The notes under the pieces: generated by a model | What the model was told of the DNA's origin: nothing | The model's input: the letters and a program-made list of their open reading frames with translations, nothing else | The model's database searches: none | Position numbers and translations under genes: made by a program | Shown here: in pieces, positions 42,677 to 63,184 of the stretch | Layout: each line of letters opens with the position of its first letter | How positions within the stretch are numbered: position 1 is the first letter of the stretch | Assembly (NCBI GenBank): GCA_963765125.1 | Contig: CAVXUZ010000004.1 | Span: 64,792-128,791 of the forward strand | Direction of reading: 5' to 3' | DNA: 64,000 nucleotides | Origin: an uncultured candidate division WWE3 bacterium | GTDB taxonomy: Bacteria > Patescibacteriota > WWE3 > UBA101185 > UBA10185

Positions 42677-43381
42677 CTACTGCTTGGTTACACTAACAAG
42701 TTTTCCTACTATTATCAATCTGTTAAGCGTGGTACCAGGGGGCCAGCAGGTCATCAATGTTGCTTTGTCTTCTTTGGTAGGTTCGGTGAGGTAAGTTATT
42801 TGATCTGGATTTACGATACTTTTTTCATTTACTTCGTACTTATAGATAACCTCATCTTTTACGAGATAAAAAACATCCTCATTTTCTAGTTTGTGAAGCA
42901 AGTAAAAAACTGAGTTATAACGATTTGCATTATAAAAATTGTCTGATGAATGAGCAAAGAGAAATGTATTGCCGCCCTGCTCTGGCAAAGGCGAGCCTTT
43001 TGCGTGTGCCACACCCTGTGTGAGCCTCTGCTGATATTCTTGAGAATTATACGGATCTACGTCTTGTACTACTTTAGAATTAGCACCTATTTTTGGCACT
43101 ATAATACTAAAATCCTTATCAACGGGGGCAATTTTATCTTCATCAATAACCGCAGCAATATCAGAAAGAACAATTTCTTTATCGGCGACTTTACCTGGGC
43201 GAGAAAATATATAGCTTGCCTCTTCTTTCAAGATCGGTGAAAACACAGCCACAAAAATTAATGCTGAAAGAAAAACGAGAATAACGCCGGTCCTTATAAA
43301 GGACTCGGCGATTCTCTCATTAGCTAAACTAGATTTGGTAGATTTATTTTTTCTGGTTTTTAATCTTTTTTCTGAGGACAT
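42677..43381 (-). CDS. sortase (Cys transpeptidase)
   Basis: N-terminal TM, catalytic His region, the TLMTCWPPG active-site Cys motif, and a conserved Arg further downstream. Confidence 0.8.
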   Translation of the reverse strand: MSSEKRLKTRKNKSTKSSLANERIAESFIRTGVILVFLSALIFVAVFSPILKEEASYIFSRPGKVADKEIVLSDIAAVIDEDKIAPVDKDFSIIVPKIGANSKVVQDVDPYNSQEYQQRLTQGVAHAKGSPLPEQGGNTFLFAHSSDNFYNANRYNSVFYLLHKLENEDVFYLVKDEVIYKYEVNEKSIVNPDQITYLTEPTKEDKATLMTCWPPGTTLNRLIIVGKLVSVTKQ

Positions 43382-44309
43382 TTAGTAACACCAATGCTAA
43401 CAATATTAGCACAGCCCAAAATACTTTACTCTTTAAAAGCCCTCCTCCAAGATCATCGGTAACCTCTTCGCCCATCGTAGCATCTTCTGACTCAGTGCCT
43501 TCACCTAAAACCTCACCAACAACAGAACCTTCTTCGCCAGTCTGCTCACCTAAGATACTTCCACCCTCAGTAGGAATGGCTCCTTCGGTTACTTCTGTTC
43601 CTTCGTCGGTTGTTTCTGTAGTAATAGTTTCGATGTCATCTACCTCTTGGACACGCACGTCTGATGGATTACCAAACGAGTCAAATGCTCTGGTGGCAAA
43701 AAACCAATCCTTATCGCAATCTGTCCCATACACCTCGTAATCAAAATCGTACTCCTCGTCAGGACCCATACTGTAATCTTTGATCTTGCTACCATCGTTT
43801 ACTTCGATATTTAAGTCATCGTCAGCATAGACCTCAATCTTTGCTGTACCCCCATCTGAATGAGTTTTGACTTCAATTTCGTATTTGCATGAGTTTACTT
43901 TGTTGACTTCGATGTGTCTTGGTCTTTCAGGACCTTCACCGTCGTAATCGACTGTAACTTCGTCGGAGTCTACTACTTCATCCGGGCTATCAGCTGCGGT
44001 TGCAACAACTTTAAACTTGTAAGAACCTTCTTCTGTAAGTTCGCTACTTGTTACATCACAAATCTCTGAGTCACCGCCACTACCAAGTGGGTAGACTGGC
44101 CCAAAATCTGAAAATCCACCTTCGCTTGGTCTTTGCATAAAGCATTGTGCTGACACTTGTCTGTCCAATAAATCTTGAACAACAAAAGTGATACCAAATG
44201 GTCTATTTGCGGTTGCTGCAGGCTCTTCTATTCTCACAAGCAACGCGGCTGCGTTAGCTTTTGGTGAAAAGATGAATGCTCCAAGAATCACCAACCCAAA
44301 TACTTTCAT
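43344..44309 (-). CDS. secreted membrane-tethered protein (second reading unit of the 43344-47924 ORF)
   Basis: Starts with a signal peptide-like MKVFGLVILGAFIFSPKANA 9 codons after the KKK tail of the upstream sorting signal. Ends with GGGLL + TM + RKKIKNQKK. As sequenced it is in frame with the upstream part, with no stop between them. Confidence 0.45.
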   Translation of the reverse strand: MKVFGLVILGAFIFSPKANAAALLVRIEEPAATANRPFGITFVVQDLLDRQVSAQCFMQRPSEGGFSDFGPVYPLGSGGDSEICDVTSSELTEEGSYKFKVVATAADSPDEVVDSDEVTVDYDGEGPERPRHIEVNKVNSCKYEIEVKTHSDGGTAKIEVYADDDLNIEVNDGSKIKDYSMGPDEEYDFDYEVYGTDCDKDWFFATRAFDSFGNPSDVRVQEVDDIETITTETTDEGTEVTEGAIPTEGGSILGEQTGEEGSVVGEVLGEGTESEDATMGEEVTDDLGGGLLKSKVFWAVLILLALVLLNVLRKKIKNQKK

Positions 44310-47300
44310 TCCAAGACTAAATTTCGGCAGGGTAATCTTTTTCTTCATGAGTAAAACTCCCATCAAAATATTTACTAAGCCGATTATTAGAGCAATGAAC
44401 GCGGCGTATATCCAATTTGTGTCTGAACCTGTTGCAGGTAAGAATGTTGAAGCACCGAGTACTTCACCAACTACGATCTTGTTTTCTTCAACGTCAATTT
44501 CTGCTGCGTCTGGTTCTATGTAGTTTAGAACCAGTACATCGGTTCCAACAAAGTTAGTTCCAACATCAGCAGGTACCGCTACGGCAAGTACCGTATCCCC
44601 AACAATGTTTTCTCCTTTTGCCCATGCAAGATCTTTGTATTTTCCTGAATCAGTGCCATCCTGAACAGTTCCAATGTAGGTCAAGGTGATTACCTCATTC
44701 TCTTCTATTTCACCAAGAGACCATGTACCTGGAGAGGCGTATGTGGGTTCTGTTAATAAGCCTGCTAAATTGCCGTGGACACTTGAAGTACCAGTCCAAC
44801 TTGAGGACATATACTTAATGTTGTCTGGTAACAAGTCTGTTAAGTTAACACCAAAAACAGATCCTCTCAAAGCTTTTATTGTCATAGTGAAGATAATGCT
44901 ATCTCCTGACGCTACTGGTGTACCGCCTGTGTCGTTGGATTTGGTAATTTGTAGTTCTACGTCTGTAGGTACATTACCAAATGGATATTCAGGGGCGTAA
45001 ACAGCATTTTGAGAAACTGCAAATCTGTTTGGGTTATTGTCTGGAATAGTTACATCGTGGCAACCTCCACGAGCTGGGTAGGTTTGTTGCCATCCTTCTT
45101 TTTCTATTTCGCAAACCCTGTAGGTACCTGGAATTAAGTCTTCAAACCAATACCAACCAAAGTGCTCACTTTGAGGATCGTCTTCTGTGGTTGTTCGTGG
45201 TTCTCCATCGTCAAGGTCGCCGTTTAGGTTTTCGTCGATGTAAATTGTCCAATCACCAAGCAGCTCTTCGCATTCTTGAGCAGGTTGAGGATCAATTTCG
45301 GTCATAAGACTTCTCAGCAAGGGTGATGATACCTCCGTATTACTTACATCGCAGCTATTAAAATCTCCATCGGCGTTACTATCTAACCACTTGTATCCAT
45401 GGATATCACCTGTTGGCACGTTCCATGCTATGCAAGTGTACGTTTCACCAAAACTTACCTTATCAATCCTATCCCAGTTATCGTAGTTTAATGCATCAAC
45501 GTGACAGTACATTTCGGCACTCACATTATTGCTATTACCGCCCTCAATACCGTAGGTAAAGGGTATATAGCCTTCTTGCCAAACCTCTCTCATCCAAAGG
45601 TTACTCGATGCTGTTACCTCATCTCTTGATAAAGATACGGTTGCTAAACCACTTGAGTCTGTTGGGCCAAAAGTATGCCATTTTGGATTTGATGAGACCC
45701 CAGTATTGTCTCCAGGATTTGGTGCAGTTGGTGTACCCCATTGGAACAACCAACTTGGTTCAAAGTAACAATGACCTTCACTAGTATCTACCCAATTCTG
45801 AGCAATAGACTGTGTTATAGGTGTTTGCCTCCCGTTTAAAGATCCGCCTCTTCCCCAGTTCGGTAAATAGGATTCGTCATCACACATTATTTTATATGCG
45901 TTTATTGTTATGGTAGGAGGTATGAAGGTATTTGTTACGGTTGCTGTTGCTACTTGACCCTCAGCTACGCCAACTGTTTCGGACTCTATAAGCACCGTCC
46001 ACTCGCCACCAGGGTTTGTTTCAAGTACACGATATGAACCTGAAGCAAGGTTGTCCCATGTAAGTACACCGCCGTCATAATCTATACTCTTGCAATCTCG
46101 AGAGTCGCTGTCTACTGGTGATACACAAATTTGAAAGTATCTGCCAGTGTTTGGTGATGTGCCGCTCCAGTCAACTACTTTTGTTACTTCTAAACTTCCT
46201 GTTTTTGTGGCAATTGAGACACTATCTACTCTAAAATACTCGTCATCTTGTGAAGCATCGTTTCTAAACCTCAAACTAAAAACCTTATTGTCCAAAACGT
46301 TAGGCAAGTCATACGATTCGTTGTTCCAAGACATATCACTTAATCGGTGTCTTTCAAGCTCTGTCCAACCAGTTGTACGGTCACAAGTAGTACCGAGCTG
46401 GTATTCAACCCTACCATAGTCGTTAGATTCTGCGTCTTCGTCACCATTCCAAAAATAAGAAAGAGCAAGATTATTCAGTCCAACAGCTGAGAACGCACGG
46501 CAGATAAAACCATCTTCACCAATTTTTGCATATTTTCCATCTATCGGCGCGTTTTCACCAGATCCGCTGTGAATCACAGCTGGTTCGTTTTCTGGCCAAT
46601 CAGGTACGCTGTTACTTTCTGAGGTGCCAAATGATTCGAAAAATGGTATAGCGGTAGATGATACTACTGTAATTCCATTTGTGAGTGTCTCTACGCCCGA
46701 ACTACCTCCACTGCAACCGTTACTACCATAAGCACGGAAAGATATATCGTAAATTCCCACTGTACTTGGTGCGGTCACGCTAAAGTTATAACTATGATAG
46801 CCGGAATAACCAAAATTTGGCCCATCCAAGCATACTGGGCTTTGCCCTTCGATTGCGTACCTGAGAGATTGCCAATTATTATTTGAGGGCGACCCATCAG
46901 TACCAACCCTCAAAGTCGCCTGGACAGACTCTCCAGGGTAAGCAATTACTTGTGTAGCTCCACTAAACTCTGGAAATAAGGTCAAATTCGCCCAAACTAT
47001 CCAAATAGAAAAGTGGTCCAAATCTTTTACTGTAACAGTGCTGTCATCACCTTCTATTTTTTCTTCTTCAATATCTTTAATGTCATCTTTGGTGATTTCT
47101 TCGTCTTTTTCTTTTTCAATGTAAGAAACGTCGGTGTCCACCATTTCATCATTTGGTAGGGTTAGCTCATACACAAAAGAGCCTTCCTCCATATCTGTAT
47201 CAATATCGTATGCGTAGGGAGTCGCAGACATATAACCTTCTGGGAGGTTAAGTTCTTCAATTGCGATTCTCTCAATTTTTAAATTCGATCTCTGCTCTTC

Positions 47301-47924
47301 ATTAGTAGGAAGACAGGTGAAAGTTACCGAAACTTCGGTGTTAAGTGGAAATTCATATTTTTTACCAAGTTCTACCTTGTTTACTGTCTCTGCCTTTTCT
47401 TCGTCAACAGCCCAATCAGACTCTGTTGAAGAATTAATAGGCTCATCCTCGTTAAAACAAACTGTGCTTTCCTCTTCTTCTACGTTAGTACCTTCGGCAT
47501 CTACTGGTGCCAGATCTTCTTCAAGTACTTGCTCACCTTCTGCCGCAGGTTCTTCCGTTACAGGTTCCTCATCCGCAGGCTCTTCAATAACTTCCTCTGG
47601 TGTGCCCTCTTCTATAACTTCGATTGCCGCGTCTTCAGGATTGTCAGAAGCAAGCTCGTCTTCTTGCTCTTCAACTGCAGGCTCTTCCTCCACAGTCGCC
47701 TCTTCTTCCTCTACCGGCTCTTCCTCAGCGGCTGGTTCCTCCTCCGAGGCAGACTCCTCCCCTGTCGTCTCATCTTCGCTTGAAACTTCTTCAACGGTAC
47801 CTTCTTCTGTAGAAAGATCTTCCGCGTATACGATTAGCAGTGGTTGAGACAAATTTATAATAAGGGAAAAAGTAGCTAGAAAACTGATAAGCTGGTTGCC
47901 TATCTTTTTTATTATTTTTTTCAT
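44310..47924 (-). CDS. LPXTG-anchored giant surface protein with CnaB-like domains (sortase substrate)
   Basis: Signal peptide, acidic E-rich low-complexity region, and CnaB-like G[ST]YRV.E motifs. Classic sorting signal LPATG + TM (WIYAAFIALIIGLVNILMGVLLM) + KKK, ending at about 44337. The stop is missing as sequenced, probably because of a 1-nt indel in the A-run at 44334-44345. Confidence 0.6.
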
Positions 47925-50392: not shown

Positions 50393-51508
50393 ATGAAATT
50401 TACCTGTCTTCAAGAGAATTTATCAGACGCTTTAAATAAAGTTTATCGTGCAGTCCCTACTAAAAGCGACCTCCCAATACTTTCAAATATTTTAATCTCC
50501 GCCGAAGACAACAGAATAAAAATTTCAGCAACAAACTTATCTACAACAATAGTTACACACATGGGTGCCTCAATTGAAGAAGAAGGCAAAATTACCGTAC
50601 CGGCAAAAATGCTAAAGGAGTTTATTTCAAATCTCAGCTCGAGCTCTATTGAAGCAACTCTCAAGGATGACGTTTTACAAATTAAATCAGATGCAACAAA
50701 ATCTAAATTTAACGGAGTTTCGGCAGAAGATTTTCCTGACCTTCCCGAGGAGAGAAAAGATTTAAAAACAATAGAGATTAAACCAGCAGAGTTTTTTAAT
50801 GCAGTTAGCGCTGTTGCCTTCTGTGCTTCACTCGACGACAGCAGACCGGTGTTTACCGGAATTTATATGAAGTTTAACGGCAGTGACATTACAATGGCTT
50901 CAACAGATGGGTTTAGGCTTTCTGAAATTAAATTTTCTGTAGATAATAAAAATGAGCCGTTTTCAGTAGTTATTCCCGCAAAAACGTTGTTAGATGTTTC
51001 ACGTGTGTTTAGCAGCAACGACATACCTATTATATTTACGCTCGATAAAAACGATAACTTAGCAATTTTCAAACAAGATGAGACACTTATCGCTACGAGA
51101 ATACTCGATGGTGAGTACCCTGACTACACAAAAATTATTCCTAAAGACACTTCTGTTAAGGCGGAGTTTGAAACTTCTGACTTTATGGAGGCTGTAAAAC
51201 TTACCGATATCTTTGCAAAGGAAGCGGACAGCGCTTTGGTGATGAAAATTTCTCCAAAGGGAGCAATTGAAATTGGCGCGCAAGCTCAAGAAACTGGGGA
51301 GCACAGAAGTAAAATAAAAGCAGATGTGACAGGTGAGGAAGAAGTAGAAATTGGATTTAATTCAAAATACTTATTAGACTTTTTGAACAATAATAAAGAA
51401 GCCAGACTTTCGGTAAGCACAGGTGGCAGTACTTCACCCTGTCTGTTTATTCCAATAGGTGTAGAAAACTACAAGCACATTATTATGCCTATGCAAATTC
51501 ACGGTTAA
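50393..51508 (+). CDS. dnaN: DNA polymerase III beta sliding clamp
   Basis: 371 aa with the three-domain beta-clamp N-terminus MKFTCLQENLSDALNKV...LPILSNILI. Confidence 0.9.
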   Translation: MKFTCLQENLSDALNKVYRAVPTKSDLPILSNILISAEDNRIKISATNLSTTIVTHMGASIEEEGKITVPAKMLKEFISNLSSSSIEATLKDDVLQIKSDATKSKFNGVSAEDFPDLPEERKDLKTIEIKPAEFFNAVSAVAFCASLDDSRPVFTGIYMKFNGSDITMASTDGFRLSEIKFSVDNKNEPFSVVIPAKTLLDVSRVFSSNDIPIIFTLDKNDNLAIFKQDETLIATRILDGEYPDYTKIIPKDTSVKAEFETSDFMEAVKLTDIFAKEADSALVMKISPKGAIEIGAQAQETGEHRSKIKADVTGEEEVEIGFNSKYLLDFLNNNKEARLSVSTGGSTSPCLFIPIGVENYKHIIMPMQIHG

Positions 51509-53707
51509 TTATTGTTGGGGTTTATCTTTATCTATTGTAAATGAGTCATTCCCTCGAAGATCGCGTGTATTTCCAGCCTCACCAAACCTTATTCCATCTT
51601 CAGGCGCCTGCTGTGCTTGCGGTGCTTGCGGTGGTTGATAATATGCTGGTTTTACAACATTTTGCTGTGCAGGAGATGCGCCGGCTCGATAGGCTGTCTG
51701 TTCTGGAATATTTTGAGCTCCTGGCGTTCCCACTACGGTAACATTGGGTGGTTGCTGCATATAGGCAGGCCTAATGTTTCCTTGAGCATCTAGAGTTTCG
51801 TATTTGTTAGGGTCAAAAACTGCGTCAGGTGTGGGGCGATAAGTATTTCTTTGCGGAGCTTGCGTTTCTTCGGTTAATTTTCCTTTATCCCTCATACGCA
51901 ATATTTCTTCAGGATTTGTCGTTATGAGATTATGCTCTGCCTGTGACGCTTTAATTCTTATAGCAACGTGATTTGCGCCAGCAAAAAATAATCCTTCTCC
52001 AATATCGGCTGCGAGTAAAAGTCTTCGCTCACCTTCAGAAAGGTAAAATGTTTCTGCAACTCGATCAATTGCCGCCGGATGCTGTTTGAGAAGAATTTGG
52101 ATTGATGAGTTTGTAACGATTGCCTTGCCGTAATCAGAACGTAGAAAATCATCAACATCTTGTGAAACCGTAGTCAGGCCTAAATAATATTTTCTCGCTC
52201 TTTTCGCAACACCATAAATAAATCTCGCGCTATCGTCATTTTGCATAAGATACCAGGCCTCTTCAACGATTAGAATTCTCTTCTTCAAATCTCGGCGTAT
52301 CTTCGTCCAAACAAAATCTAAAATGATATAGAAAGCTACCGGTCGTAAAACTTCGTCTTCAATATTCTTTGTTGAGAAGACTGACATTCTACCGTTTATA
52401 TCTATTGAAGATTGTGAATCAAAAATTCCCGCCATCGATCCTCTAATATATTTCTCTAACCTATCTGCCATTCCGCGCGCCTCTTCTTCTTGTGCGCCCC
52501 GCAACACTTTGTAGAGGTCTTCCATGATTGGAGGCTCATTATTCATCTGGGTTTCAGGGTCTGTGGTAATACCTTTAACTCTGTAGGTTTCGATAAGAGC
52601 ACGATCTAAAATTGCTTCTTCAGACGGGTTGAGCGCTCCCATCATTAATTTAAGTAATGTGTGTAATGAAAGTAATTTTTGGCTTAATTCATTTTCACCC
52701 TCAACAACAACACCCGATAAATCAAAAGGATTTATTTTATGTTTTGAGCTTGGTGAAAAGTCTATATAGTTTCCACCAACTGCAGTACATAAACTTCGAT
52801 ACTCTTCTTCAGGATCGATAATCATAACTTCGGCACCAAAAACCATTAAACGTAAAGCCTCGAGTTTTACATAGTAAGATTTACCAGCTCCAGATTTTGC
52901 AAAAACAACCGAATTGGCATTTTCCATCGAGAAACGGTCAAAGACGACGAGCGACCCGTTGTGCATATTTATTCCGTACATAATTCCCTCATCTGAAGTT
53001 AGATCTGAAGAAGTGAATGGAAATGTCGTCGCCAAACTTGTAGTATCCATATTTCTCGTAATAAGAAGTTTATCTGCAGCCATCGGCAATGACGATTGAA
53101 ATGCTTCTTCCATTTGAAGGGTTGCTGGTTTGGAGATTAGTAGCAATGAACTGAGCGTAGACTCTAGCCTGCTCGAAACTGTGTCGAGTTCATCTACAGA
53201 GTCGGCGGTAATTGTTATATAAAAAGAGAACTGAAAATATTTTTCTACACCTTTAACTAGTTGCTCTTGCAATGATGTTGCATCTTCTAGTGCTGCTCTC
53301 ACGACAGGATCGGTAACTCTTCCTTTTTCACGGTCAGAAAGTTCTGTAGCTTCGAGCTCAGTAATCTTTCTTCGCAAATCTTCCAAAATCATTTTTGCTC
53401 TTACAGGATAATAAAACATCGATAAATCAAGCGAGTGATCGAAGTTGATTATTGGTGAAAGCCAATTTGCACCCACAAACCTTGGGTAGCCTGAGATAAA
53501 TAATGTTCTGTAATAGTTGTTTCCGATTTTTAAGTGGTTAAAGTCAACCTCAATCGCCGAAGGGGCAATAATATCCCTAACGTTAAGCATCCCCCTTGCA
53601 AGAATTTCTGGTGCCGTGCCTTCCCCGCCCGGTCCCTCAACCATAGAGTTATTTGGTGTTTTTTGTTCTTTCTTTTTAAAAAAGTTTAAATCAGGTAATA
53701 ATGCCAT
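51509..53707 (-). CDS. VirB4/TrsE/PrgJ-like type IV secretion ATPase (major part)
   Basis: Walker A FAKSGAGKSYY and Walker B ILIVEEAWYLM (DEAW-type). Conserved Gram-positive VirB4 segment YYRTLFISGYPRFVGANWLSPIIN. Has a P/Q-rich 120-aa C-terminal tail. Confidence 0.75.
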   Translation of the reverse strand: MALLPDLNFFKKKEQKTPNNSMVEGPGGEGTAPEILARGMLNVRDIIAPSAIEVDFNHLKIGNNYYRTLFISGYPRFVGANWLSPIINFDHSLDLSMFYYPVRAKMILEDLRRKITELEATELSDREKGRVTDPVVRAALEDATSLQEQLVKGVEKYFQFSFYITITADSVDELDTVSSRLESTLSSLLLISKPATLQMEEAFQSSLPMAADKLLITRNMDTTSLATTFPFTSSDLTSDEGIMYGINMHNGSLVVFDRFSMENANSVVFAKSGAGKSYYVKLEALRLMVFGAEVMIIDPEEEYRSLCTAVGGNYIDFSPSSKHKINPFDLSGVVVEGENELSQKLLSLHTLLKLMMGALNPSEEAILDRALIETYRVKGITTDPETQMNNEPPIMEDLYKVLRGAQEEEARGMADRLEKYIRGSMAGIFDSQSSIDINGRMSVFSTKNIEDEVLRPVAFYIILDFVWTKIRRDLKKRILIVEEAWYLMQNDDSARFIYGVAKRARKYYLGLTTVSQDVDDFLRSDYGKAIVTNSSIQILLKQHPAAIDRVAETFYLSEGERRLLLAADIGEGLFFAGANHVAIRIKASQAEHNLITTNPEEILRMRDKGKLTEETQAPQRNTYRPTPDAVFDPNKYETLDAQGNIRPAYMQQPPNVTVVGTPGAQNIPEQTAYRAGASPAQQNVVKPAYYQPPQAPQAQQAPEDGIRFGEAGNTRDLRGNDSFTIDKDKPQQ

Positions 53708-53710
53708 TTT

Positions 53711-54409
53711 TTATTCCTCTACAATTGCAGGGTTTACAATGGCAGTCTTGTAATCCTCAATGTTAGTCCTAATTCTCTGCCCGTGCACTGTGCTCGGGTT
53801 GTAAATATCAAAATAAAGTTCAACGAGTTCTTGAGTAGAAAGTTGTCTTGCACGAACTCCTAATCTTCCGAATTCTTTTAGCATGTGGTCGACTTTAGGA
53901 ACGAGTTTAATACTCGCCTCTTTTAATACAGCGTCAACGTTTACGCTCACTCTTTTTTTGTATAACCCTGCAAGTTTAATAAAGAAATCAAACGGTCCGG
54001 ATCCTAAGTCTTTTTCTGTAACAAGCCCCGAGGGAACTACCACATAAAACTTTTTAGAAAGAACTTCGTTGGTTTTTATTGTTTCTTGTACAAACTTACG
54101 ATATGACTCAGCTTGAATCTTCATCAATGGGTCATCAATTTTTTGTTCCATTTTGTGAATTTTTTGTATGTATTTTGTAATATCGAGTTGTTTTGATCGT
54201 AAAACCACTTGAATAGGAAATGTAATTGAGTTTAAAAGCATAGCAAACGCAGATATAGTGGCGTCCTGCTCAATTTCTGAAAGCAAATCAAAATTAACTG
54301 CGGTTGTTTCTAATACTGCGCAAACTCCACCGTTTTTTAAAACAACAAAGTTGTTTTTTATCTCGTGTATTTCTAAATGTTCTTGTGTACTGGCAGTTAT
54401 AGCTTCCAT
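53711..54409 (-). CDS. VirB4 N-terminal domain-like protein (separated from the ATPase by an in-frame TAA)
   Basis: VVLKNGGVCAVLETTAVNFDLLSEIEQDATISAFAMLLNSITFPIQVVL resembles the N-terminal segment of Firmicute conjugative VirB4 proteins. Its stop TAA is in the same frame as, and 3 nt from, the ATG of the downstream ATPase ORF. Confidence 0.45.
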   Translation of the reverse strand: MEAITASTQEHLEIHEIKNNFVVLKNGGVCAVLETTAVNFDLLSEIEQDATISAFAMLLNSITFPIQVVLRSKQLDITKYIQKIHKMEQKIDDPLMKIQAESYRKFVQETIKTNEVLSKKFYVVVPSGLVTEKDLGSGPFDFFIKLAGLYKKRVSVNVDAVLKEASIKLVPKVDHMLKEFGRLGVRARQLSTQELVELYFDIYNPSTVHGQRIRTNIEDYKTAIVNPAIVEE

Positions 54410-54412
54410 AAA

Positions 54413-56120
54413 TTAAGAAGACCTCCCTGAAATTTCTATTGGAGGAATAACCTCTCCCTTTACATCTACAGTGATTATATCAAAGGTTACTCCATCGATA
54501 CCTGTACCAATTTCGATTGTGTACACACCGTTCACCAAGGACGTGCTAATTGCAAATTGCCCAAGGCTGTTCGACTTTACAGCGCGTACTGCCTCACCTT
54601 TATGATTTTTGATGAGCAGCACACTTCCTGCGATTGGCTCCCCCTTTGTGTCTTTTAGATATACCTGAAATAATGTTTGGTTCGTTTGTAATTGGCTGCA
54701 TTTTTATATAGGTAGGATCCTTTTTAGGTTGTTCTGTAAATGCCGCTTCTTTTTCTTTTAAGCGCCTCTGTAATTCAAGCACTTGTTGTTGCAACGCGCT
54801 ATAGTCTGCATTCGTCTTACTCTTCTCTTCCTCAAGTTTTGTTACCAACGCCTGCTTCTGCTGTCTCTGCTGGTCTGACTCTTGTGAATTATTAATATCT
54901 CTTTTCAACTGTTCGATCTCTTCAGAAAGTTTTTCATTTTCTTGTTTAACCTTGTTAACTACATCCTCTGCCTCGTAAATCTTTTGTTTTGAAGATGCGT
55001 CTTGTGGAATATCAGCCGCAGAAATTATTCCTTTAAACTGGTCGTCTCCTTTTATCTGGTTTAATAATTTTCTTAGTTGGTCAGTTCTTTTATTAATATC
55101 TTCTTCAATATTTTGCTGTTCACTGGTCTGCAACACAACCTCTCCCCTTACGGGAAGTATAAGTTGTCCCTCTGACGGCAGTAAATTGGTAAATCTTCTA
55201 CCTACGTGACGTTCGGGAGATGCTTGATTAGCATCAAAGTTTGAGTGGGGAAACGTTCGCTTTACCGGTTTTGTTGTTTGGCTGGCTTCTCTTTGCATTT
55301 TTTTAATAATTGGTTGAATCTGTGGACGTGGCTTTTGTTCTTCTACCGCAGCAGCTACGGGTTGGGGGCTTGGTGCTTCTTGTGGTTTGCTTTGTTGCTC
55401 ATTAACAGCTAATGACTTGTTTGCCTGTACGTCCGGTGCTTTGTTCTGTGATTCAGCTATAGATGCGCTAAAAGGTACAAAAACCTGCGATTCCTGAGGC
55501 ATTGGTGCAGATGGAAATATCTGCGAAGGCTCACTTGGGGCCTCAACCGCAACTTCAACGGGAGCTGCTGCGGCACTTGCAAAGTCTTGTTTTGCTACGG
55601 CAGACTCGCGGCGTACTTCTTGGCCAAACGCGTCTTGAACTTTTTTTAAAAATGCCTGCTCTGGAATGTCCAAAGGGTCGATTTCACGCTCCTCGTGCTG
55701 TTTTTCTAGGTATTCTTCGAGTTTTCTTCTGCTGGATGTCGGCGCTAGAGTTATTAATTCCTGGCGCACCATATGAATATTTTGGTAGGTAAACGCTGCA
55801 GGAAGTATCGCCTCTTTTTTCCACAGTAAGTGTGTTGGCGCGTACACTGCTTTAATAAAATTGATTATCCATTCATCCATACCTCTTTCTTGAATTGGTA
55901 CAAACGCTAAAGCCAACCCAATTAATATAAAAAAGAGAACCGTTGGCAGTTTAAACGCTCCTAAGGGAGAAAGGTTAGCTACATACGCTGCTAACGCAAA
56001 AACAAGAAGGTAGGTAAACTGTCTCATTGTTAAATCACCAATGAGTTTAAATTCAACATCCATTATGTTCTGTGGAACAGCATGCTGAGAATGTGTTTTT
56101 TGAGCTTCTTTAATAGGCAT
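54413..56120 (-). CDS. PrgI/VirB3-like membrane protein fused to a coiled-coil and a C-terminal carboxypeptidase-regulatory-like beta-sandwich (frameshifted)
   Basis: N-terminus VPQNIMDVEFKLIGDLTMRQFTYLLVF + two TM + YAPTHLLWKKE matches the PrgI family. A long heptad region follows. The C-terminal domain LKDTKGEPIAGSVLLIKNHKGEAVRAVKSNSLGQFAISTSLVNGVYTIEIG is split between ORFs 54600-56120 and 54413-54622 by a 1-nt frame change near 54640-54680. Confidence 0.55.
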
Positions 56121-56144: not shown

Positions 56145-59100
56145 TTATTCCAACATCACAAACAGTTCCAAATCACCTTTTAGCTCACCAGACGTGAAAA
56201 TTGTGTTTTCTGATGATTTTAGAAACTCAGCACCATCAATAAAGTTCATGCCGAACGGAATCCCAAATGAATACGAGTAGGCGTCTTGGTGCGTCCCCGC
56301 CTGTTTTTGCCATAACAAACTGTATTTTGTTTGTTCTTTGGTGATTGATAAATTCTGGGGTAAATCATAGTAAAGCACTACCTTTGCGCTATTTCCGGGC
56401 TCGAGCTTAAAATTTGTTTCAAAAGAAGTGTAGGGCTCAACATTTGCTATAACAACCTCGTTGAAGATATCGTTTTCTAATGCGGAATTGTAAATAATTT
56501 TTGCACCAGTTAGTTTTGCACCTTTTTGTGCCAATACCCTCAAATAATTTGTGTAAGGTCCGCCGGGCCAAGCGCTATCTGTCCCTGTATGTTCATAATT
56601 TAATGCTAATTCTGCCCTAAGAAGCCCGTCGCGGGTTAAACTCATAACCTTATATGCCATATCTTCCTTAACGTAGTAGTTTGCCTTAGTACCACCTAAA
56701 TTAGCATTTACTACCTGTAGATAGTCACCTTCAGTTTTTTTCAAACTGCCGTTCCAACCTTTGTCCATAAGTACAGCCTCAATGGGGCTTGAAAATAGGT
56801 GAACTTGCAAGTGCCTTTCTTGTAAAACCTCAGAAAGAGCCATACCCAAAACCTGTGTTTTTTCTTTTTCTAATGCAAAAAGCGATTCTAGAAGCTTACT
56901 TCCAAAAACTGTTAGAAATTGTCTTTTTTGTTGAGAGCCAGATTCAAAATTATAAGATGAATGAAATTGTGTACGCTCATATAAATTGTCTACGTTTATC
57001 TCTTCGTTGTAGGCGGTTAAAAATATTGGTCCGGTAATCTTTAGCATTGCGGCGGCAACATTTAAGTCTAGGGCGATAACGCCGTCAATGGTCTCGCCGT
57101 TTAGCCTAAAAAATAAATCCCTAATTGTTTCAGCACTCCTTGGAAAATCCGGATCCCAGTTTGCGTTTCTAATGTAAAGCCTATCTTCGGTTAAAAATTT
57201 GCCGATGGGTTCGGGCGTAATAACTTTTATGTTTCTTACATCCAGCTGACCGTCGGGGTTGTAAATGTCATCAATGCTAAGTTCTTGGATTTTTCCATCT
57301 TTTAGGGATAAGAATGCGTAAGACCCAATAAACCCACCTGTTGGTCTTATTTCGTTGTTATTCTGAAAAAGCACCAAATACTTCTTTGGGGTCTCAAATC
57401 CAATCAAACTGGGTAAATCACCCATCACAGAATTTGCAAGCTCTAGGCCCTCTGTTGAAGTTTTAAGCACCTCCGAATAAGGCTCAACCGCGTCTTTCAT
57501 CAACGCTGGAAGGTAGTTTGAATCAACCTCATTAAACTCGGCAATAGCTAGCTGAAGATTATTTTTTGCGTCTGAGAGATAAAGCTTCGAGTCTTCCAAC
57601 GTTTTGGGATCAAACTGCTTTGTTGAATCAGGTTTTAGTGAGTCCCAAATGTCAGATAGCGGAGAAATCGACATTGATAAATCAGCTGCTACGCTCGAAA
57701 AATAAGACACGGAGTTAATAAATTTTGAAGTAGATTTATAGTCATCGTATTTTCCAAACAATTTATAAATCCAGTCTAAGCTCGAAAAATACTTTTTTGC
57801 GTTTAAAAATTCTTTGTGCGCGTTGTCTGCTTTTACTGCCGCACCCTTAGAATCAAATCTCGTAATCATTTCGGGGACTTCTTCAAGATCTGACATCGCC
57901 CTTTTAGCCGAAGAGTAGGTTTGATAACCCGGCAATATTACAAAAACTGACAGAAAAGATAAAACAACAATTACGAAAACAGAAAATTTACTTGCAAGAC
58001 TTATTTTTGGTAAAACGATGCTGAATTTGCCTAAATTCAATCTTGGTAAATGAAAAGCAATTTTATTTCTTTTTATTTTTGGGATTTCTTTTAAGTTAGT
58101 AATTTTTCTTTGGTTATAGTTTTCTTGGTACGATGACTGCTGTTCTTGCGGTGCCTGTTTTTGAAATGCAAAACTCTGGTATACGGGAAGCGCAGGCGTT
58201 TGCTTTGAGGGGTCAGTTAGCTTATCAATAAGTTTTGCGTTTTTAAACGCGTGCTCGTTTACTTGATAACCAAACCAATTTAAAGTGGTGACGATACCGT
58301 CTTTAAGCGAAACTTTCGGCTCCCATTTTAGGTAAATGAGATTGTAGGTATCTGGCTTAAATTCTTTTACTTCGCTCGTTGCGCCTTCATCTTCGAATTT
58401 AATTTCTACACGCCTATCTGCCAAGCTTCTAATTAAATAGGTGGTTTCAATCAGCGACATCGAATCATTTGGAACTAGAGAGTAAATCCCTCCAGTAGTA
58501 CCATCGTTTAGAAGGGCTTTGATCATTCCTGAAACTGCGTCGTTGATGTAAAGATAATATTCTTTTTTTGCACCATCGCCTTTAATTACAAAAGGTCGAC
58601 CCTCAACCAAATCTCTAAATAATTTACCCAAACTCCCGCTGGCGTCAAAACTCATTCGAGGACCGTATACTTCAGGCAGTCTTACAATTCTGACGTTCGT
58701 ATTGTGTTTTTTGTGGTATTCAAAAACTAATGCCTCGGCGTATCTTTTAGCTTCAGCCATACCATATTTTTTCTCTTCGAACCCGGTTTTTCCAAAATAA
58801 GAATCAATACTGAGCTGTGACATTTTACCTTCATAGACGTCAATCGTTGAAGCCAACAAAAATTTAGCCTCTGACCTATTTGCTAAATCTAAAAGATTTT
58901 TAGTGCCAAGTGCATTTGTCAAAAGCGAATCTAAATCAACAGTGTCTTTGCTAAAAAGATATTCTTCTAAACCAGCTATATGAAAAATATAATCAACAGA
59001 TTCAATATCTTGGGGTAACCCTTCGTTTATATCAACATCGTAAAGAGCGAATTTTGGGTTGGTAAGTAAATGGTTTACGTGAATTTGTTTACCGGTTCTA

Positions 59101-59255
59101 AAATTATCTAATACGATAACTCTCGCTTCTTTTTGGAGTAAAACCTCTGCTAAATGAGATCCTATAAACCCTGCGCCGCCGGCTATAAGAATCGTTGGAG
59201 CAAGGGATGACTTTTTAATCGTACTACTTGTTTGCATCTTGGGCAGTAAATACAA
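56145..59255 (-). CDS. fusion protein: N-terminal NAD-dependent sugar epimerase/dehydratase, TM segment, large C-terminal DUF4012-like domain
   Basis: GGAGFIGSHL Rossmann motif and YxxxK SDR core (about 330 aa). Then a hydrophobic anchor (FSVFVIVVLSFLSVFVIL). Then an about 600-aa domain with IRPTGGFIGSYAFLSL, which I recall as DUF4012-like. Confidence 0.6.
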   Translation of the reverse strand: MYLLPKMQTSSTIKKSSLAPTILIAGGAGFIGSHLAEVLLQKEARVIVLDNFRTGKQIHVNHLLTNPKFALYDVDINEGLPQDIESVDYIFHIAGLEEYLFSKDTVDLDSLLTNALGTKNLLDLANRSEAKFLLASTIDVYEGKMSQLSIDSYFGKTGFEEKKYGMAEAKRYAEALVFEYHKKHNTNVRIVRLPEVYGPRMSFDASGSLGKLFRDLVEGRPFVIKGDGAKKEYYLYINDAVSGMIKALLNDGTTGGIYSLVPNDSMSLIETTYLIRSLADRRVEIKFEDEGATSEVKEFKPDTYNLIYLKWEPKVSLKDGIVTTLNWFGYQVNEHAFKNAKLIDKLTDPSKQTPALPVYQSFAFQKQAPQEQQSSYQENYNQRKITNLKEIPKIKRNKIAFHLPRLNLGKFSIVLPKISLASKFSVFVIVVLSFLSVFVILPGYQTYSSAKRAMSDLEEVPEMITRFDSKGAAVKADNAHKEFLNAKKYFSSLDWIYKLFGKYDDYKSTSKFINSVSYFSSVAADLSMSISPLSDIWDSLKPDSTKQFDPKTLEDSKLYLSDAKNNLQLAIAEFNEVDSNYLPALMKDAVEPYSEVLKTSTEGLELANSVMGDLPSLIGFETPKKYLVLFQNNNEIRPTGGFIGSYAFLSLKDGKIQELSIDDIYNPDGQLDVRNIKVITPEPIGKFLTEDRLYIRNANWDPDFPRSAETIRDLFFRLNGETIDGVIALDLNVAAAMLKITGPIFLTAYNEEINVDNLYERTQFHSSYNFESGSQQKRQFLTVFGSKLLESLFALEKEKTQVLGMALSEVLQERHLQVHLFSSPIEAVLMDKGWNGSLKKTEGDYLQVVNANLGGTKANYYVKEDMAYKVMSLTRDGLLRAELALNYEHTGTDSAWPGGPYTNYLRVLAQKGAKLTGAKIIYNSALENDIFNEVVIANVEPYTSFETNFKLEPGNSAKVVLYYDLPQNLSITKEQTKYSLLWQKQAGTHQDAYSYSFGIPFGMNFIDGAEFLKSSENTIFTSGELKGDLELFVMLE

Positions 59256-61525: not shown

Positions 61526-63184
61526 TTACATCATTCCCGGCATTCCGCCCATTCCACCCATTCCACCGCCCGGCATTCCCCCTGCGTCATCGTTCTTTTT
61601 TGGTGCGTCTGCTATTAAGCACTCGGTTATTAAAACCATAGTCGCTGCAGAAACTGCATTTTGTAGTGCACTTCTGGTAACCTTTGCAGGATCTATAATC
61701 CCAGCGTCAATCATATTAACGTACTCCATAGAAACCACATCTAATCCGATGTTGGGATCCTTCTTTTCGGAGGTTAGGGCCTCTAGCTCAGCAAGAACCT
61801 TTCCTGCGTCGGCGCCGGCATTTTGGACGATTATTCTTGTTGGTTTTTCTAACGCTTCATAAAGTATTTTTGCTCCAGTTGCCTCATCACCATCAAGTTT
61901 AAGCTTCTTAATAACCTCTCTAGCACGAAGATAGGCAATTCCACCGCCTGCAACTACACCCTCTTCTACTGCGGCTCTTGTTGCGTTTACTGCGTCTTCA
62001 ACCCTTAGCTTCTTTTCTTTCATCTCAGCTTCAGTGGCAGCACCAACACTTATTTCTGCAACGCCGCCTGTTAATTTAGCCAGTCTTTCGTTTAACTTTT
62101 CTTTATCGTAGTCAGAAGTGGATTCATCCATCTGGGTTTCGATTTGTGCAACTCTTGCTTTAATTTCTTTTGTGTTGCCTTTTCCGCCTACAATCGTTGT
62201 GCTCTCTTTATCAGAAATTACTCTGTCAGCGCGTCCCAAATCTTCTACAGTCGCGGAGTCTAATTTTCTTCCCATTTCTTCGCTAATCATTGTCGCGCCG
62301 GTAAGAATGGCAATATCTTCGAGCATTGCTTTTCTACGGTCACCAAAACCTGGTGCTTTTACTGCGAGAACGTTGAATGTTCCTCTTATTTTATTTACAA
62401 CTAGAGTGGCCAAGAGCCTCGCCTTCAACATCTTCTGCAATTATCACGAGGTTTTTTGAGACTTTTACAAAACTTTCGAGCATGGGTAGCATTTCCTGAA
62501 GATTTGCTACTTTTTGATCAGTAACCAAGATGTACGGATCGTTTATTTCAGATTCCATCTTTTCGGCGTTTGTTACAAAGTAGGGTGATGCGTAGCCTTT
62601 ATCAAACTGCATACCTTCTTTGTATTCTAGTTCGATTACAAATCCTTTGCCTTCATTGACTGTAATAACGCCGTTATCGCCAACTTTTTCCATAGTTTCG
62701 GCGATTAGATTACCTATTTCTTTGCTTTGAGCTGAATTGCGCGCAATTTGTGCTTTTTCTTCTTTTGAAGAAATGTCTTTAGCAAGTTTTCCAATTTCCT
62801 CAATCACTGCTTTTGAAGCTTTTTCGAGACCTCCTCTTAAAATCATTGGATTTGCGCCTGCACTAATATTTCTCAAGCCGCTTTCGACTAAAGCCTGGGC
62901 TAATACTGTTGCGGTCGTTGTTCCATCACCTGCAACGTCATTGGTTTTGCTCGCAGCCTCTTTTACAATCTGAGCGCCCATATTTTCAAATTTGTCTTCA
63001 AGCTCAATTTCTTTGCAACGGTTACACCGTCGTTAACAACTTGAGGTGCTCCCCAGCTTTTATCGAGAGCAACATTTCTACCTTTTGCACCCAACGTTAC
63101 CGCTACTGCTTTTGCAAGTGCGTCAACACCTGCTTTTAATTTTTGTCTTGCTTCATCGCCATAAATAATATTTTTTGCTGACAT
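61526..63184 (-). CDS. groEL: chaperonin GroEL, interrupted by two 1-nt homopolymer indels (three ORF fragments)
   Basis: The fragments at 62963-63184, 62391-62981 and 61526-62440 are collinear with GroEL (N-terminus AKxIxYGDEAR, C-terminus [13 protein letters not shown]). Restoring one A at about 63008-63010 gives [17 protein letters not shown]. Removing one G/C at about 62408-62411 gives [13 protein letters not shown]. Confidence 0.85.

Follow-up and report, generated by a model that had tools for sequence, protein, structure and literature searches.

Origin and identity of the locus

Three consecutive minus-strand genes of an uncultured candidate division WWE3 bacterium resemble components of a type IV secretion system (T4SS), which raises the question of whether they are left over from a conjugative element or belong to a system of the cell itself. 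All three are genuine and lie back to back at 51509-56120 of the window, i.e., the whole 64,000-nucleotide stretch of DNA that was analyzed. They are flanked on one side by rnpA-yidC-jag-dnaN and on the other by an epimerase/DUF4012 fusion, Wzz and groES/EL. The first-pass annotation had described the genes, their families, their Gram-positive type and their position between dnaN and envelope-polysaccharide genes in the same way, and the module is indeed MPF-FATA-like. Two of its observations, a single ORF of about 570 aa and an extracytoplasmic domain, did not hold as worded, and its interpretation was likewise supported only in part. From its sequence, the trio appears to supply a chromosomal Patescibacteria T4SS with its membrane anchor and its motor ATPase, the latter in two pieces:

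51509..53707 (-) VirB4-type T4SS ATPase, 732 aa (family and PDB matches)
53711..54409 (-) TrsD/"TraC-like" (PF26593) protein, 232 aa, soluble, equivalent of the VirB4 N-terminus
54413..56120 (-) PrgI/VirB3-like two-TM protein, much extended at its C-terminus; 506 + 69 aa in the sequence as it stands, 568 aa after frame repair

VirB4 ATPase and TrsD-like protein

The 732-aa product scores 359 bits against NCBIfam conju_CD1110 (cutoff 325) and also matches Pfam P-loop_TraG (5e-31) and AAA_10, while its residues 233-596 match the VirB4 C-domain of PDB 4ag5 (1e-49). The Walker A motif and DEAW-like box reported earlier are both present:

52877..52900 (-) Walker A AKSGAGKS, residues 270-277 (motif position; coordinates computed from the gene start)
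52253..52276 (-) Walker B/DEAW-like box ILIVEEAW, residues 478-485
51512..51910 (-) P/Q/A-rich low-complexity C-terminal tail, residues ~600-732 (translation and composition)

None of the family or PDB matches reach past residue ~600, and orthologues range from 646 to 890 aa. Because the CD1110 match covers only profile positions 182-735 of 752, the product lacks an N-terminal part, namely some 180 positions at the start of full-length VirB4 proteins. TrsD and VirB4 align to consecutive, non-overlapping stretches of full-length VirB4 profiles (103-234 and then 283-893 of VirB4_plasma), which supports the earlier proposal of a split protein. The TrsD-like protein reaches 35.7 bits against NCBIfam TrsD, for which the curated cutoff is 200, and the best structural match of its moderate AF2 model (pLDDT 64) is TrwK. 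In effect, VirB4 is divided into a TrsD-like N-terminal protein and an ATPase carrying the rest of the N-domain and the ATPase domain.

Architecture of the PrgI/VirB3-like protein

The N-terminus is of the PrgI family with two hydrophobic helices, as first annotated, and the long extension with linker, coiled coil and beta-sandwich was also borne out:

55827..56078 (-) PrgI (PF12666) domain, residues 15-98 (Pfam 32.5 bits, gathering score 27)
55902..56027 (-) transmembrane hairpin, residues 32-51 and 57-73, loop of 5-6 residues (AF2 helices of homologue P0002 and hydropathy)
55623..55901 (-) highly conserved post-membrane region, residues 74-166, with invariant LAPTSSRRKLEEYL and DPLDIPE (columns of alignment A1)
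55131..55613 (-) disordered, variable, P/Q/E/A-rich linker, residues ~170-330 (AF2 pLDDT <50; alignment A1)
55116..55211 (-) conserved linear motif RHVGRRFTNLLPSEGQLILPVRGEVVLQTSEQ, residues 304-335 (A1 consensus PITPDMHSGRxFTNLLPSxGELILPIRGE)
54735..54998 (-) antiparallel coiled-coil hairpin, residues ~375-411 and 416-462 (P0002 AF2 model, pairwise alignment)
54413..54692 (-) C-terminal CnaB/transthyretin-like beta-sandwich (CarboxypepD_reg-like), residues ~477-568 (Pfam, AF2, Foldseek)
54653..54656 (-) frameshift site inside the beta-sandwich, an AAAA run that is one A too long for the frame shared by all intact homologues

The transmembrane helices (pLDDT >90) and the coiled coil (P0002 helices 366-402 and 407-453, pLDDT ~90) were mapped onto the window protein from the AF2 model of P0002. 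A phmmer search with PrgI-like residues 1-173 matched 1,224 cluster representatives (E<=1e-10). The linker varies from about 80 to about 900 residues among homologues. The linear motif is carried by 201/242 family members, and the beta-sandwich forms the extreme C-terminus in 223 of the 242. For the carboxypeptidase-regulatory-like domain proposed earlier, the fold is backed by AF2 (pLDDT ~95) and by Foldseek, modelled on a 60%-identical homologue, with matches to CnaB2 8bdw (TM-score 0.71) and to the carboxypeptidase D transthyretin-like domain 5aq0; the family assignment falls short, as the repaired protein matches PF13620 CarboxypepD_reg at 1.6e-5 and 25.6 bits, under the Pfam gathering score of 32.3. 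The long tail is kept across WWE3 and is also found in a Microgenomates genome. A literature search found no description of such a tail on PrgI/VirB3, and this conserved extension of the anchor protein appears to be the one part of the system that is new.

As sequenced, the gene consists of a 506-aa ORF (54600-56120) and an overlapping 69-aa ORF (54413-54622) in a different frame. The protein of about 570 aa in the first-pass annotation is obtained only when one A is removed at 54653-54656, which gives 568 aa colinear with intact homologues; at the repaired junction, SGISK is followed by DTKGEPIAGSVLLIKN, colinear with SGVLKNAEGEPLEGSVLLIKN of P0002.

Conservation, synteny and partner genes

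The PrgI, TrsD and VirB4 genes are adjacent in 58/58 testable species-level WWE3 loci, and dnaN lies within 9 kb of them in 53 of these. Compared with the window, VirB4 has a median identity of 77% (taken across 70 WWE3 loci), TrsD of 66%, the N-domain of PrgI of 57% and DnaN of 49%, i.e., VirB4 is better conserved than DnaN. From groES to rnpA/rpmH, WWE3 relatives at 62% and 37% PrgI identity carry their genes in this same order, which supports the earlier view that the locus is chromosomal and not an integrative and conjugative element. Judged by conservation and synteny, the trio belongs to the core of candidate division WWE3 and is inherited vertically. Among the ~60 ORFs of the window, no match was found to relaxase, VirD4/T4CP, VirB6, pilin or integrase families, in line with the absences noted at first.

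The module is nevertheless not an orphan. The neighbourhood comparison suggested by the first-pass annotation located VirB6-like and pilin genes either at a second locus or directly upstream of PrgI. Relatives with the window-like arrangement encode a four-gene T4SS-pilin array (PF18895) and a TrbL/VirB6-like gene at a second locus, as VirB6-like proteins of PrgI-less loci have exact counterparts in WWE3 genomes with a window-like PrgI locus (RAAC2_WWE3_1, a complete chromosome; RIFOXYC2_FULL_42_13; RIFOXYB1_FULL_43_24; GW2011_GWC2_41_23; and a 715-kb contig). Besides the VirB2-like pilin array and the polytopic TrbL/VirB6-like membrane protein, this second locus contains a candidate wall hydrolase with a SpoIID domain and two giant uncharacterised proteins. 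In other WWE3 lineages the VirB6-like gene abuts PrgI directly upstream (25 loci), with pilin arrays upstream in 17/25, and Microgenomates homologues of the VirB6-like gene come after pilin arrays. For the window's own organism, where our search covered the 64-kb window of a 294-kb contig, we infer such a locus from its relatives.

These data bear on two rival readings. The trio could be the decaying remnant of an integrated conjugative element that has lost its relaxase, coupling protein and channel genes; the absence of other T4SS genes from the window, the frameshift and a best curated family match to the conjugative VirB4 family CD1110 would fit this. However, VirB4 surpasses DnaN in conservation at the same loci, the trio stays intact and adjacent in every testable locus, its core-gene synteny persists over deep WWE3 divergence, and the partner genes are present elsewhere in related genomes. 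This reading is already contradicted by the conservation data, and we regard it as extremely improbable. The frameshift itself is likely an assembly error, because the gene of relatives is intact and groEL in the same window carries two frameshifts, which points to errors rather than decay. If it were instead real, as a strain-specific truncation or a programmed frameshift, the protein of this organism would stop behind the coiled coil, and its beta-sandwich would be missing. The public gene call on the contig gives the same 506-aa product, and in an independent assembly of run ERR12035938 the contig apparently starts ~70 nt downstream of the frameshift site, with a 56-aa gene fragment called upstream of TrsD, leaving the intact frame without independent confirmation. 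We still consider a real frameshift unlikely, as the site falls in a homopolymer, a single frame runs across it in nearly all full-length homologues, the essential groEL gene is interrupted twice in the same window, and the 69-aa downstream ORF is conserved and still without stops.

Proposed function and topology

The explanation we find probable is that the trio is part of a Patescibacteria T4SS with a two-part ATPase, partners at a second locus, a pilus or conduit for host interaction, and a cytoplasmic tether. The PrgI/VirB3-like hairpin would sit in the cytoplasmic membrane, where its conserved juxtamembrane region may dock the soluble two-polypeptide ATPase (TrsD/TraC-like plus VirB4), and the remaining parts would be supplied from the second chromosomal locus in genomes with this arrangement. 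In solved T4SSs, VirB2 is recruited by VirB3 and VirB6 transmembrane segments, and pilus assembly is energised by VirB4 (PMC12624023). By analogy, these segments would recruit membrane-embedded pilins, which the VirB4 hexamer would then extract into a pilus or conduit. Such a structure would serve host-cell interaction and not plasmid transfer; epibiotic growth of Southlakia requires its T4SS (PMC10633639, PMC12857230). The C-terminal extension would most likely act as a cytoplasmic tether that keeps a binding domain near the ATPase.

The location of this extension decides between tether and surface structure. No third transmembrane helix was found in 228 full-length homologues, and the protein has no signal peptide. 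Mean K+R counts (N-tail 3.4, loop 1.0, 30 residues after TM2 4.8) favour an N-in/C-in orientation in 230/230 sequences. Both termini of VirB3 are cytoplasmic (PMC12857230), and natural VirB3-VirB4 fusions are known (PMC12102498, PMC12624023). The cytoplasmic VirB4 itself bears a P/Q-rich tail that resembles the linker. Topology rules and VirB3 homology thus predict a cytoplasmic extension, and the extracytoplasmic label given at first was an interpretation rather than an observation.

A surface-exposed or cell-contact component, with the proline-rich linker spanning the wall and the coiled coil and beta-sandwich forming a stalk or adhesin, is the rival we take most seriously, though we think it rather unlikely. 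Surface proteins of Gram-positive bacteria typically have CnaB/transthyretin-like sandwiches and proline-rich linkers. Among the Foldseek matches of the C-terminal domain, CnaB domains from pilins and adhesins of such bacteria (8bdw, BcpA, UafA, SdrD, RrgA) and the carboxypeptidase D transthyretin-like domain predominate, and some homologues have weak SdrD_B matches. The P/Q/E-rich linker varies widely in length, and the scarcity of VirB8-type periplasmic parts in Patescibacteria (PMC12102498) leaves a structural role unfilled. Against this stand the topology data above; moreover, some cytoplasmic enzymes have transthyretin-like folds too, PucM and dioxygenases in that Foldseek list being examples, and the strongly conserved segments flanking the hairpin need a conserved partner, for which the candidates TrsD and VirB4 are soluble and cytoplasmic. 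Alternatively, the system may move DNA, by relaxase-independent export/conjugation or Ced-like import, instead of building a pilus or delivering effectors. Patescibacteria are unable to make nucleotides and rely on host nucleic acids, T4SS loci of the ABY1 class co-localise with comF, recG and radA, and VirB4 weakly matches the archaeal DNA-import ATPases CedB (1.7e-12) and CedD (2.9e-5). These matches, however, miss their cutoffs by a wide margin and do not come near the conjugative VirB4 match in strength, and the window holds no relaxase, T4CP or DNA-processing gene. Wang et al. (2023) considered DNA transport unlikely given the absent coupling protein and relaxase (PMC10633639), and according to a review, ComEC-dependent DNA uptake leaves T4SS essentiality unexplained (PMC12857230). 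DNA transfer therefore seems improbable to us, and host interaction through a pilus or conduit remains our preferred explanation.

Comparison with known systems

The system as a whole has already been published for the ultra-small Patescibacteria between 2023 and 2025. In that clade, VirB4 is associated with TrsD and VirB3/PrgI, usually relaxase-free and near dnaA/dnaN/rnpA/rpmH (PMC12102498). By gene set and location, the WWE3 trio appears to match this relaxase-less, origin-proximal T4SS (Quinonero-Coronel et al., 2025, Microb Genom, PMC12102498; Southlakia epibionticum SEML1_0006-0019, Wang et al., 2023, Cell, PMC10633639): both have a VirB4 of MPF-FATA affinity, TrsD and a PrgI-type VirB3 beside dnaN/rnpA/rpmH, no relaxase, and genomes that also encode VirB6 and arrays of VirB2-like pilins. 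WWE3 lies outside the "Patescibacteria group" in NCBI taxonomy, and is not named in the text of PMC12102498 or in the two-thirds of its genome table covered here. In contrast to the published accounts, the window's lineage splits the system over two distant loci, and the long VirB3 extension with its C-terminal beta-sandwich is absent from the description in PMC12102498.

TrsC-TrsD-TrsE of staphylococcal pGO1/pSK41 (MPF-FATA subclass; Guglielmini et al., 2014, as cited in PMC12102498) are likewise encoded by three genes in a row, for a small VirB3-like membrane protein, for TrsD as a protein of its own that remotely resembles the VirB4 N-terminus, and for the VirB4 ATPase. Unlike ours, the Trs genes lie on plasmids and belong to a conjugative system that has a relaxase and a coupling protein, TrsK, and TrsC is small; the TrsD score of our protein is also well short of the family cutoff. 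Type-B WWE3 loci, with the order VirB6-like, PrgI, VirB4, resemble PrgH-PrgI-PrgJ of Enterococcus faecalis pCF10, and the window protein exceeds the PrgI Pfam gathering score. However, pCF10 PrgI has 117 aa and short cytoplasmic termini (PMC12857230) compared to 568 aa here, PrgJ is a single full-length VirB4 rather than two pieces, and pCF10 relies on the adhesin PrgB and lacks pilins. The TrwM(VirB3)-TrwK(VirB4) system of plasmid R388 (PDB 7O41/7O42) is diderm, with an outer-membrane core, a one-chain VirB4 and a VirB3 without extension. Its two-TM VirB3 anchors a VirB4 hexamer, an arrangement that our locus would share, and TrwK is the closest structural counterpart of the TrsD-like model.

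Identity and split of the VirB4 genes

Three tightly packed genes, flanked by dnaN (50393-51508, plus strand) and by the gene for a 1036-aa epimerase/DUF4012 fusion (56145-59255, minus strand), are of type IV secretion system (T4SS) type, as the first-pass annotation had proposed.

Genes of the T4SS-type trio
51509-53707, minus strand, VirB4-type ATPase, 732 aa (NCBIfam, Pfam and PDB matches)
53711-54409, minus strand, TrsD/TraC-like protein, 232 aa
54413-56120, minus strand, PrgI/VirB3-like protein (PF12666 and a two-helix hairpin)

Judged by its profile matches, the product of 51509-53707 is a VirB4/TraG-type T4SS ATPase. It scores 359.4 bits against the conjugative VirB4 family CD1110 of NCBIfam (cutoff 325), and in Pfam 108 bits against P-loop_TraG (cutoff 25.8) and 39 bits against AAA_10 (cutoff 27.5). 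A PDB search matches it to the solved VirB4 C-terminal domain 4ag5 (1e-49). The Walker A motif AKSGAGKS is found at residue 270 and the DEAW-type Walker B motif ILIVEEAW at residue 478, with E and not D as the first acidic residue. All close homologues are in WWE3 or Patescibacteria MAGs.

The ATPase spans positions 182-735 of 752 in CD1110 and 283-893 of 894 in the full-length profile VirB4_plasma, and with matches that begin this late the polypeptide does not contain a full-length N-terminal domain. The missing part is matched by the 232-aa TrsD-like protein, whose gene lies directly upstream of virB4 with a gap of 3 nt. This protein aligns with VirB4_plasma positions 103-234 (2.3e-10) and has a predicted fold that is VirB4-like. 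Its NCBIfam match to the TrsD/TraD model has an E-value of 7.4e-9 but scores only 35.7 bits, against a cutoff of 200. One Pfam run returned no match for it, while PF26593 is precomputed for its orthologues and for an identical protein, and a TrsD-like profile found nothing meaningful among PDB sequences.

The C-terminus of the ATPase (51512-51910, minus strand) is a low-complexity tail of ~130 residues, rich in P, Q and A and without a family match, with a composition like that of the linker in the PrgI-like protein. Orthologues range from 646 to 890 aa, and the tail is therefore variable.

Conservation of the locus

Homologues of all three proteins occur in candidate division WWE3 and in Patescibacteria MAGs, and when one genome was scanned for each species, 128 genomes encoded a PrgI relative. 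We fetched 80 loci, 58 of which had sequence enough for an adjacency test. All 58 have PrgI, TrsD and VirB4 side by side, and dnaN follows the trio by at most 9 kb in 53 of them. The order groES-groEL ... RNase H-Wzz-epimerase/DUF4012-PrgI-TrsD-VirB4-dnaN-jag-yidC-rnpA-rpmH is kept in relatives with 62% and 37% PrgI identity. Relative to the window, VirB4 has a median identity of 77%, TrsD of 66%, the PrgI N-domain of 57% and DnaN of 49%.

Family searches on ~60 ORFs of the window identified housekeeping and envelope genes and no relaxase, coupling protein (VirD4/TcpA), integrase, VirB6 or pilin, in agreement with the first-pass annotation on the parts it had listed as missing. The relaxase, coupling protein, and integrase or replication module by which an ICE or a conjugative plasmid would be recognized were thus not found in the window, and in the relatives the trio is flanked by housekeeping genes. 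The earlier view of a chromosomal block that is not part of an ICE is supported: the trio forms a core locus that is inherited vertically and strongly constrained, and is neither an ICE nor a relic. Its setting is of the Patescibacteria type, i.e., chromosomal, beside origin-region genes, with TrsD and VirB3 adjoining virB4 and no relaxase nearby.

In one relative (locus L083), dnaA comes directly after rpmH. In the window, rnpA, yidC, jag and dnaN are present, and dnaA was not found among the ORFs of sufficient length for it. Consensus scans for promoters and terminators between 51.0 and 59.8 kb gave counts no different from those of shuffled sequences, and thus no indication of operon structure. 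The window contains no tandem repeats.

The epimerase/DUF4012 gene lies 24 nt upstream of PrgI on the same strand. Its product combines a cytoplasmic NAD-dependent sugar epimerase/dehydratase, one TM helix (residues 424-442) and an outer part containing DUF4012. The fusion is directly upstream of PrgI in 32 of the 58 WWE3 loci that could be tested, and 45 of all 80 have it in detectable form. We considered it as a stand-in for VirB6 and rejected this because of its single TM helix and sugar-epimerase domain.

Reading frame of the PrgI-like gene

The PrgI-like protein scores 32.5 bits against PF12666 (gathering score 27). The length of about 570 aa proposed earlier is not seen in the sequence as assembled, where a 506-aa ORF (54600-56120) overlaps a 69-aa ORF in a different frame (54413-54622). 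It is recovered when one A is deleted from the AAAA run at 54653-54656, which gives 568 aa that are colinear, residue for residue, with intact homologues. Programmed frameshifting was rejected because nearly all full-length homologues are in frame. The frameshift is most likely an indel error in the assembly, since groEL in the same window (61526-63184, minus strand) is read in three pieces, ORFs of 304, 196 and 73 aa in frames -1, -3 and -1. Two frameshifts in an essential gene point to indel errors in this assembly. An independent 6.4-kb Logan contig carrying the window's VirB4 seems to start ~70 nt downstream of the AAAA run and does not settle the frameshift.

Split groEL is also seen in another assembly, that of a relative (locus L002). 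Elsewhere in the window, a 106-aa ORF adjoining tsaE (32574-32894, minus strand) matches only positions 35-85 of 264 of the TsaD/TsaB family, and may be another gene truncated by an indel.

Extension of the VirB3 homologue

The repaired protein is well beyond the ~100-120 aa and short termini of a small VirB3, and its homologues range from 330 to 1074 aa. From an alignment of 41 full-length homologues, the N-tail is nearly invariant (HAVPQNIMDVEFKLIGDLTMRQF) and is followed by the TM hairpin, with strong conservation up to residue ~166 (LAPTSSRRKLEEYL, DPLDIPE). Beyond this point comes a variable linker rich in P, Q and E, then a conserved linear motif (PITPDMHSGRxFTNLLPSxGELILPIRGE), helices and a conserved C-terminal domain. 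In the AF2 model of a 60%-identical homologue, the TM hairpin and a beta-sandwich are predicted with confidence, the linker is disordered, and the coiled coil forms an antiparallel hairpin. Helices at residues 32-51, 57-73 and 81-93 correspond to two TM helices and a short helix after them, in agreement with hydropathy.

The first-pass annotation had also described a carboxypeptidase-regulatory-like domain. Its fold is supported by structure prediction, as residues 470-561 of the modelled homologue form a seven-stranded sandwich with a pLDDT of ~95, and Foldseek aligns this to the CnaB2 domain 8bdw and to 5aq0 (TM-score 0.71 each). The best structural matches are CnaB2, Gram-positive pilin and adhesin domains and the transthyretin-like domain of carboxypeptidase D. 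The repaired window protein itself scores 25.6 bits against PF13620, short of the gathering score of 32.3; some homologues pass (35.6 and 33.2 bits).

A phmmer search of 1.84 billion cluster representatives, with residues 1-173 as the query, returned 1,711 proteins at E<=1e-3, of which 1,224 had E<=1e-10, and almost all of the best 150 matches are 330-1074 aa long. According to local profiles, 223 of 242 family members have the sandwich at their very C-terminal end, and the remainder are mostly short fragments. No further Pfam domain was found in the long variants. The version in one Microgenomates genome is 343 aa, with a proline-rich linker and without the coiled coil; the sandwich is therefore the constant part and the tether the variable one. 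Databases annotate the extended protein only as 'PrgI family' or 'carboxypeptidase regulatory-like domain-containing', and the literature searched holds no description of the architecture.

Side of the membrane

An extension outside the cell, as in the earlier reading of an extracytoplasmic sandwich, would fit a sandwich fold and a proline-rich linker, both of which are typical of surface proteins. The surface-exposed reading is not supported. The protein has two TM helices, and no third hydrophobic segment was found in 228 full-length homologues. On average, the N-tail has 3.4 K and R residues, the hairpin loop 1.0 and the stretch of 30 residues behind TM2 4.8, and the bias favours the side of the termini as the inner one in 230 of 230 sequences. 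Both termini of VirB3 have been described as cytoplasmic, with a C-terminal helix that binds VirB4 (PMC12857230), and VirB3-VirB4 fusions occur naturally (PMC12102498, PMC12624023). Moreover, the conserved segments flanking the hairpin need a conserved partner, for which the obvious ones, TrsD and VirB4, are soluble, and VirB4, which is certainly cytoplasmic, has a P/Q-rich tail of its own. We infer from this that the extension is probably cytoplasmic.

A new role for the VirB3 of WWE3 and at least some Microgenomates is a tentative idea that we consider rather unlikely in either of its two versions, a cytoplasmic tethered adaptor for VirB4 or a wall-spanning stalk of inverted topology. As an adaptor, the beta-sandwich would be held at the cytoplasmic face by its flexible linker and coiled coil and would capture substrates or partners there on behalf of the VirB4 motor, and the extension would replace the coupling protein that is missing near virB4 in this relaxase-less system. 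As a stalk, the protein would have a topology opposite to every known VirB3 and its extension would span the wall of a monoderm T4SS. Either version, if true, would give a new role to the smallest and least understood core T4SS subunit.

Pilin and VirB6-like genes at a second locus in relatives

Divergent WWE3 loci encode a protein of ~440-500 aa directly upstream of PrgI, with a signal peptide, six to seven TM helices and weak matches to TrbL_4 and to mycoplasma conjugal-transfer proteins. Loci where this VirB6-like gene abuts PrgI are called type B here, and those arranged like the window, without the gene at that place, type A. A local profile found the gene next to PrgI in 25 loci and did not find it in the window or in type-A loci. 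Microgenomates homologues of the gene come after arrays of PF18895 T4SS pilins, and a pilin profile built from these arrays detected further ones in 17 WWE3 loci of type B, at 5-8 kb upstream of PrgI. Neither pilin nor VirB6 genes were found in the 64-kb window with the profiles.

A metagenome scan with a narrow VirB6-like alignment gave 36 loci with PrgI next door and 23 without PrgI within up to 10 kb, the latter mostly with four pilin genes upstream; a further 21 were too short for the PrgI test. By sequence look-up, VirB6-like proteins of the unlinked loci are exact matches to WWE3 genomes with a type-A PrgI locus. Five relatives with the arrangement of the window thus have pilin and VirB6-like genes at a second locus, and UniRef names some of the unlinked proteins 'TrbL/VirB6' or 'Type IV secretion system protein'.

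Unlinked VirB6-like genes in type-A genomes
RAAC2_WWE3_1, complete chromosome, AHB40629.1
RIFOXYC2_FULL_42_13
RIFOXYB1_FULL_43_24, on a 98-kb contig shared with its own PrgI locus
GW2011_GWC2_41_23
715-kb contig

A second locus of this kind (L122, 3346-15184) includes four T4SS_pilin genes, a 205-aa ORF and the VirB6-like gene, and others are L119, L124, L125, L128 and L137. Proteins of 1274 and 1286 aa without a family match are encoded on either side of the VirB6-like gene in L122, and may supply the outer parts that are missing from the machine. A 632-aa coiled-coil protein with a SpoIID domain is encoded upstream.

In other WWE3 genomes everything is in one place, in the order pilin array, large genes, VirB6-like, PrgI, TrsD, VirB4, dnaN (loci L018, L027, L037, L043-L045, L048, L049, L051, L053-L055, L073-L077, L082-L084). 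As both locus types occur in WWE3, the system was split or joined during WWE3 evolution. The reading of the window's trio as an orphan module is thus unsupported, since the other components lie at a second locus in type-A relatives and upstream of PrgI in type B. For the window genome, we infer that the pilin/VirB6 locus lies outside the 64 kb. A database search with the VirB6-like profile gave 35 proteins, none of them on the 294-kb contig of the window, and the same profile found nothing meaningful among PDB sequences. The flanks of the pilin and VirB6-like loci have no genes in common with the window and give no clue to where the second locus lies with respect to it.

In a Shapirobacteria locus (L085, 1-1906), the gene for a 778-aa DUF8128/DUF87/TrwB-like, i.e., coupling-protein-like, ATPase adjoins a tyrosine integrase gene, a few kb from the pilin array and VirB6-like gene.

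Other genes in the window

Two giant proteins of 1441 aa (5468-9793, minus strand) and 1678 aa (20016-25052, plus strand) are rich in G, T, S and D, with one N-terminal TM helix each and almost no family matches. Their genes lie on G+C-rich stretches (0.43-0.48 against ~0.36). The last ~60 residues are nearly identical (…RIIDVSVSYQ[SA]GSATIKAASSTDGGNN…NWLFIDCGIF…N) and may be a C-terminal anchoring or sorting domain. A 927-aa protein rich in A, T, G and S (10425-13208, plus strand), without family match or TM helix, is encoded where the G+C content of the window is highest (0.45-0.47). At 42677-47924 (minus strand), a sortase gene overlaps the end of the gene for a 1526-aa DUF11-repeat protein, which has LPATG at residue 1162, then a hydrophobic segment and ~330 more residues, the last of which form another TM helix with a basic tail. 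Such a layout is odd for a substrate of sortase, and two genes may have been joined by an indel.

Probable assembly and relation to published systems

From T4SS structural work (PMC12624023) and Patescibacteria genetics (PMC12857230, PMC10633639), the most likely course of assembly can be outlined. The hairpin of the PrgI-like protein would anchor the TrsD and VirB4 ATPase assembly at the membrane and, together with the VirB6-like protein, recruit membrane-embedded VirB2-like pilins. VirB4 would then extract the pilins to form a pilus or conduit for host interaction and not for conjugation, with the PrgI extension as a tethered binding module near the motor.

Few machines of Patescibacteria have been shown to be essential for their epibiotic life, and the T4SS is one of them. 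In Southlakia epibionticum, T4SS genes are essential for epibiotic growth, and a pilin array is present while coupling protein and relaxase are missing (Wang et al., 2023, PMC10633639); essentiality and missing parts are restated in a 2025 review (PMC12857230). Should the extension prove to be a receptor for substrates or to span the wall, this would help to explain the working of a relaxase-less, pilus-bearing T4SS in monoderms. As a conserved and structured part of VirB3, it offers a concrete handle for probing what the machine binds.

The main survey covers 3,035 Patescibacteria genomes and describes a monophyletic Patescibacteria VirB4 clade inside MPF-FATA, with TrsD as the commonest associated component and a PrgI-type VirB3 adjoining virB4 (Quinonero-Coronel et al., 2025, PMC12102498). 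WWE3 is not named in its text or in the portion of its genome table considered here, and in the NCBI taxonomy it stands outside the 'Patescibacteria group'. A full-text search for WWE3 with 'type IV secretion' gave a general review only. The WWE3 version, with its extended VirB3 and split locus, is not described in the literature searched. WWE3, apparently absent from the survey, has the same kind of system, encoded at a core locus that is strongly conserved. Moreover, the ATPase genes at the origin region and the pilin/VirB6 genes can lie at two separate loci, so that components will be under-counted where a survey stops +/-20 genes from virB4. In the surveyed genomes, relaxases are nearly always missing and dnaA, dnaN, rnpA and rpmH are often near (PMC12102498). 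The window shares with them TrsD and VirB3 beside virB4, the missing relaxase and the origin-region genes, and its module is therefore most probably a member of the published Patescibacteria system.
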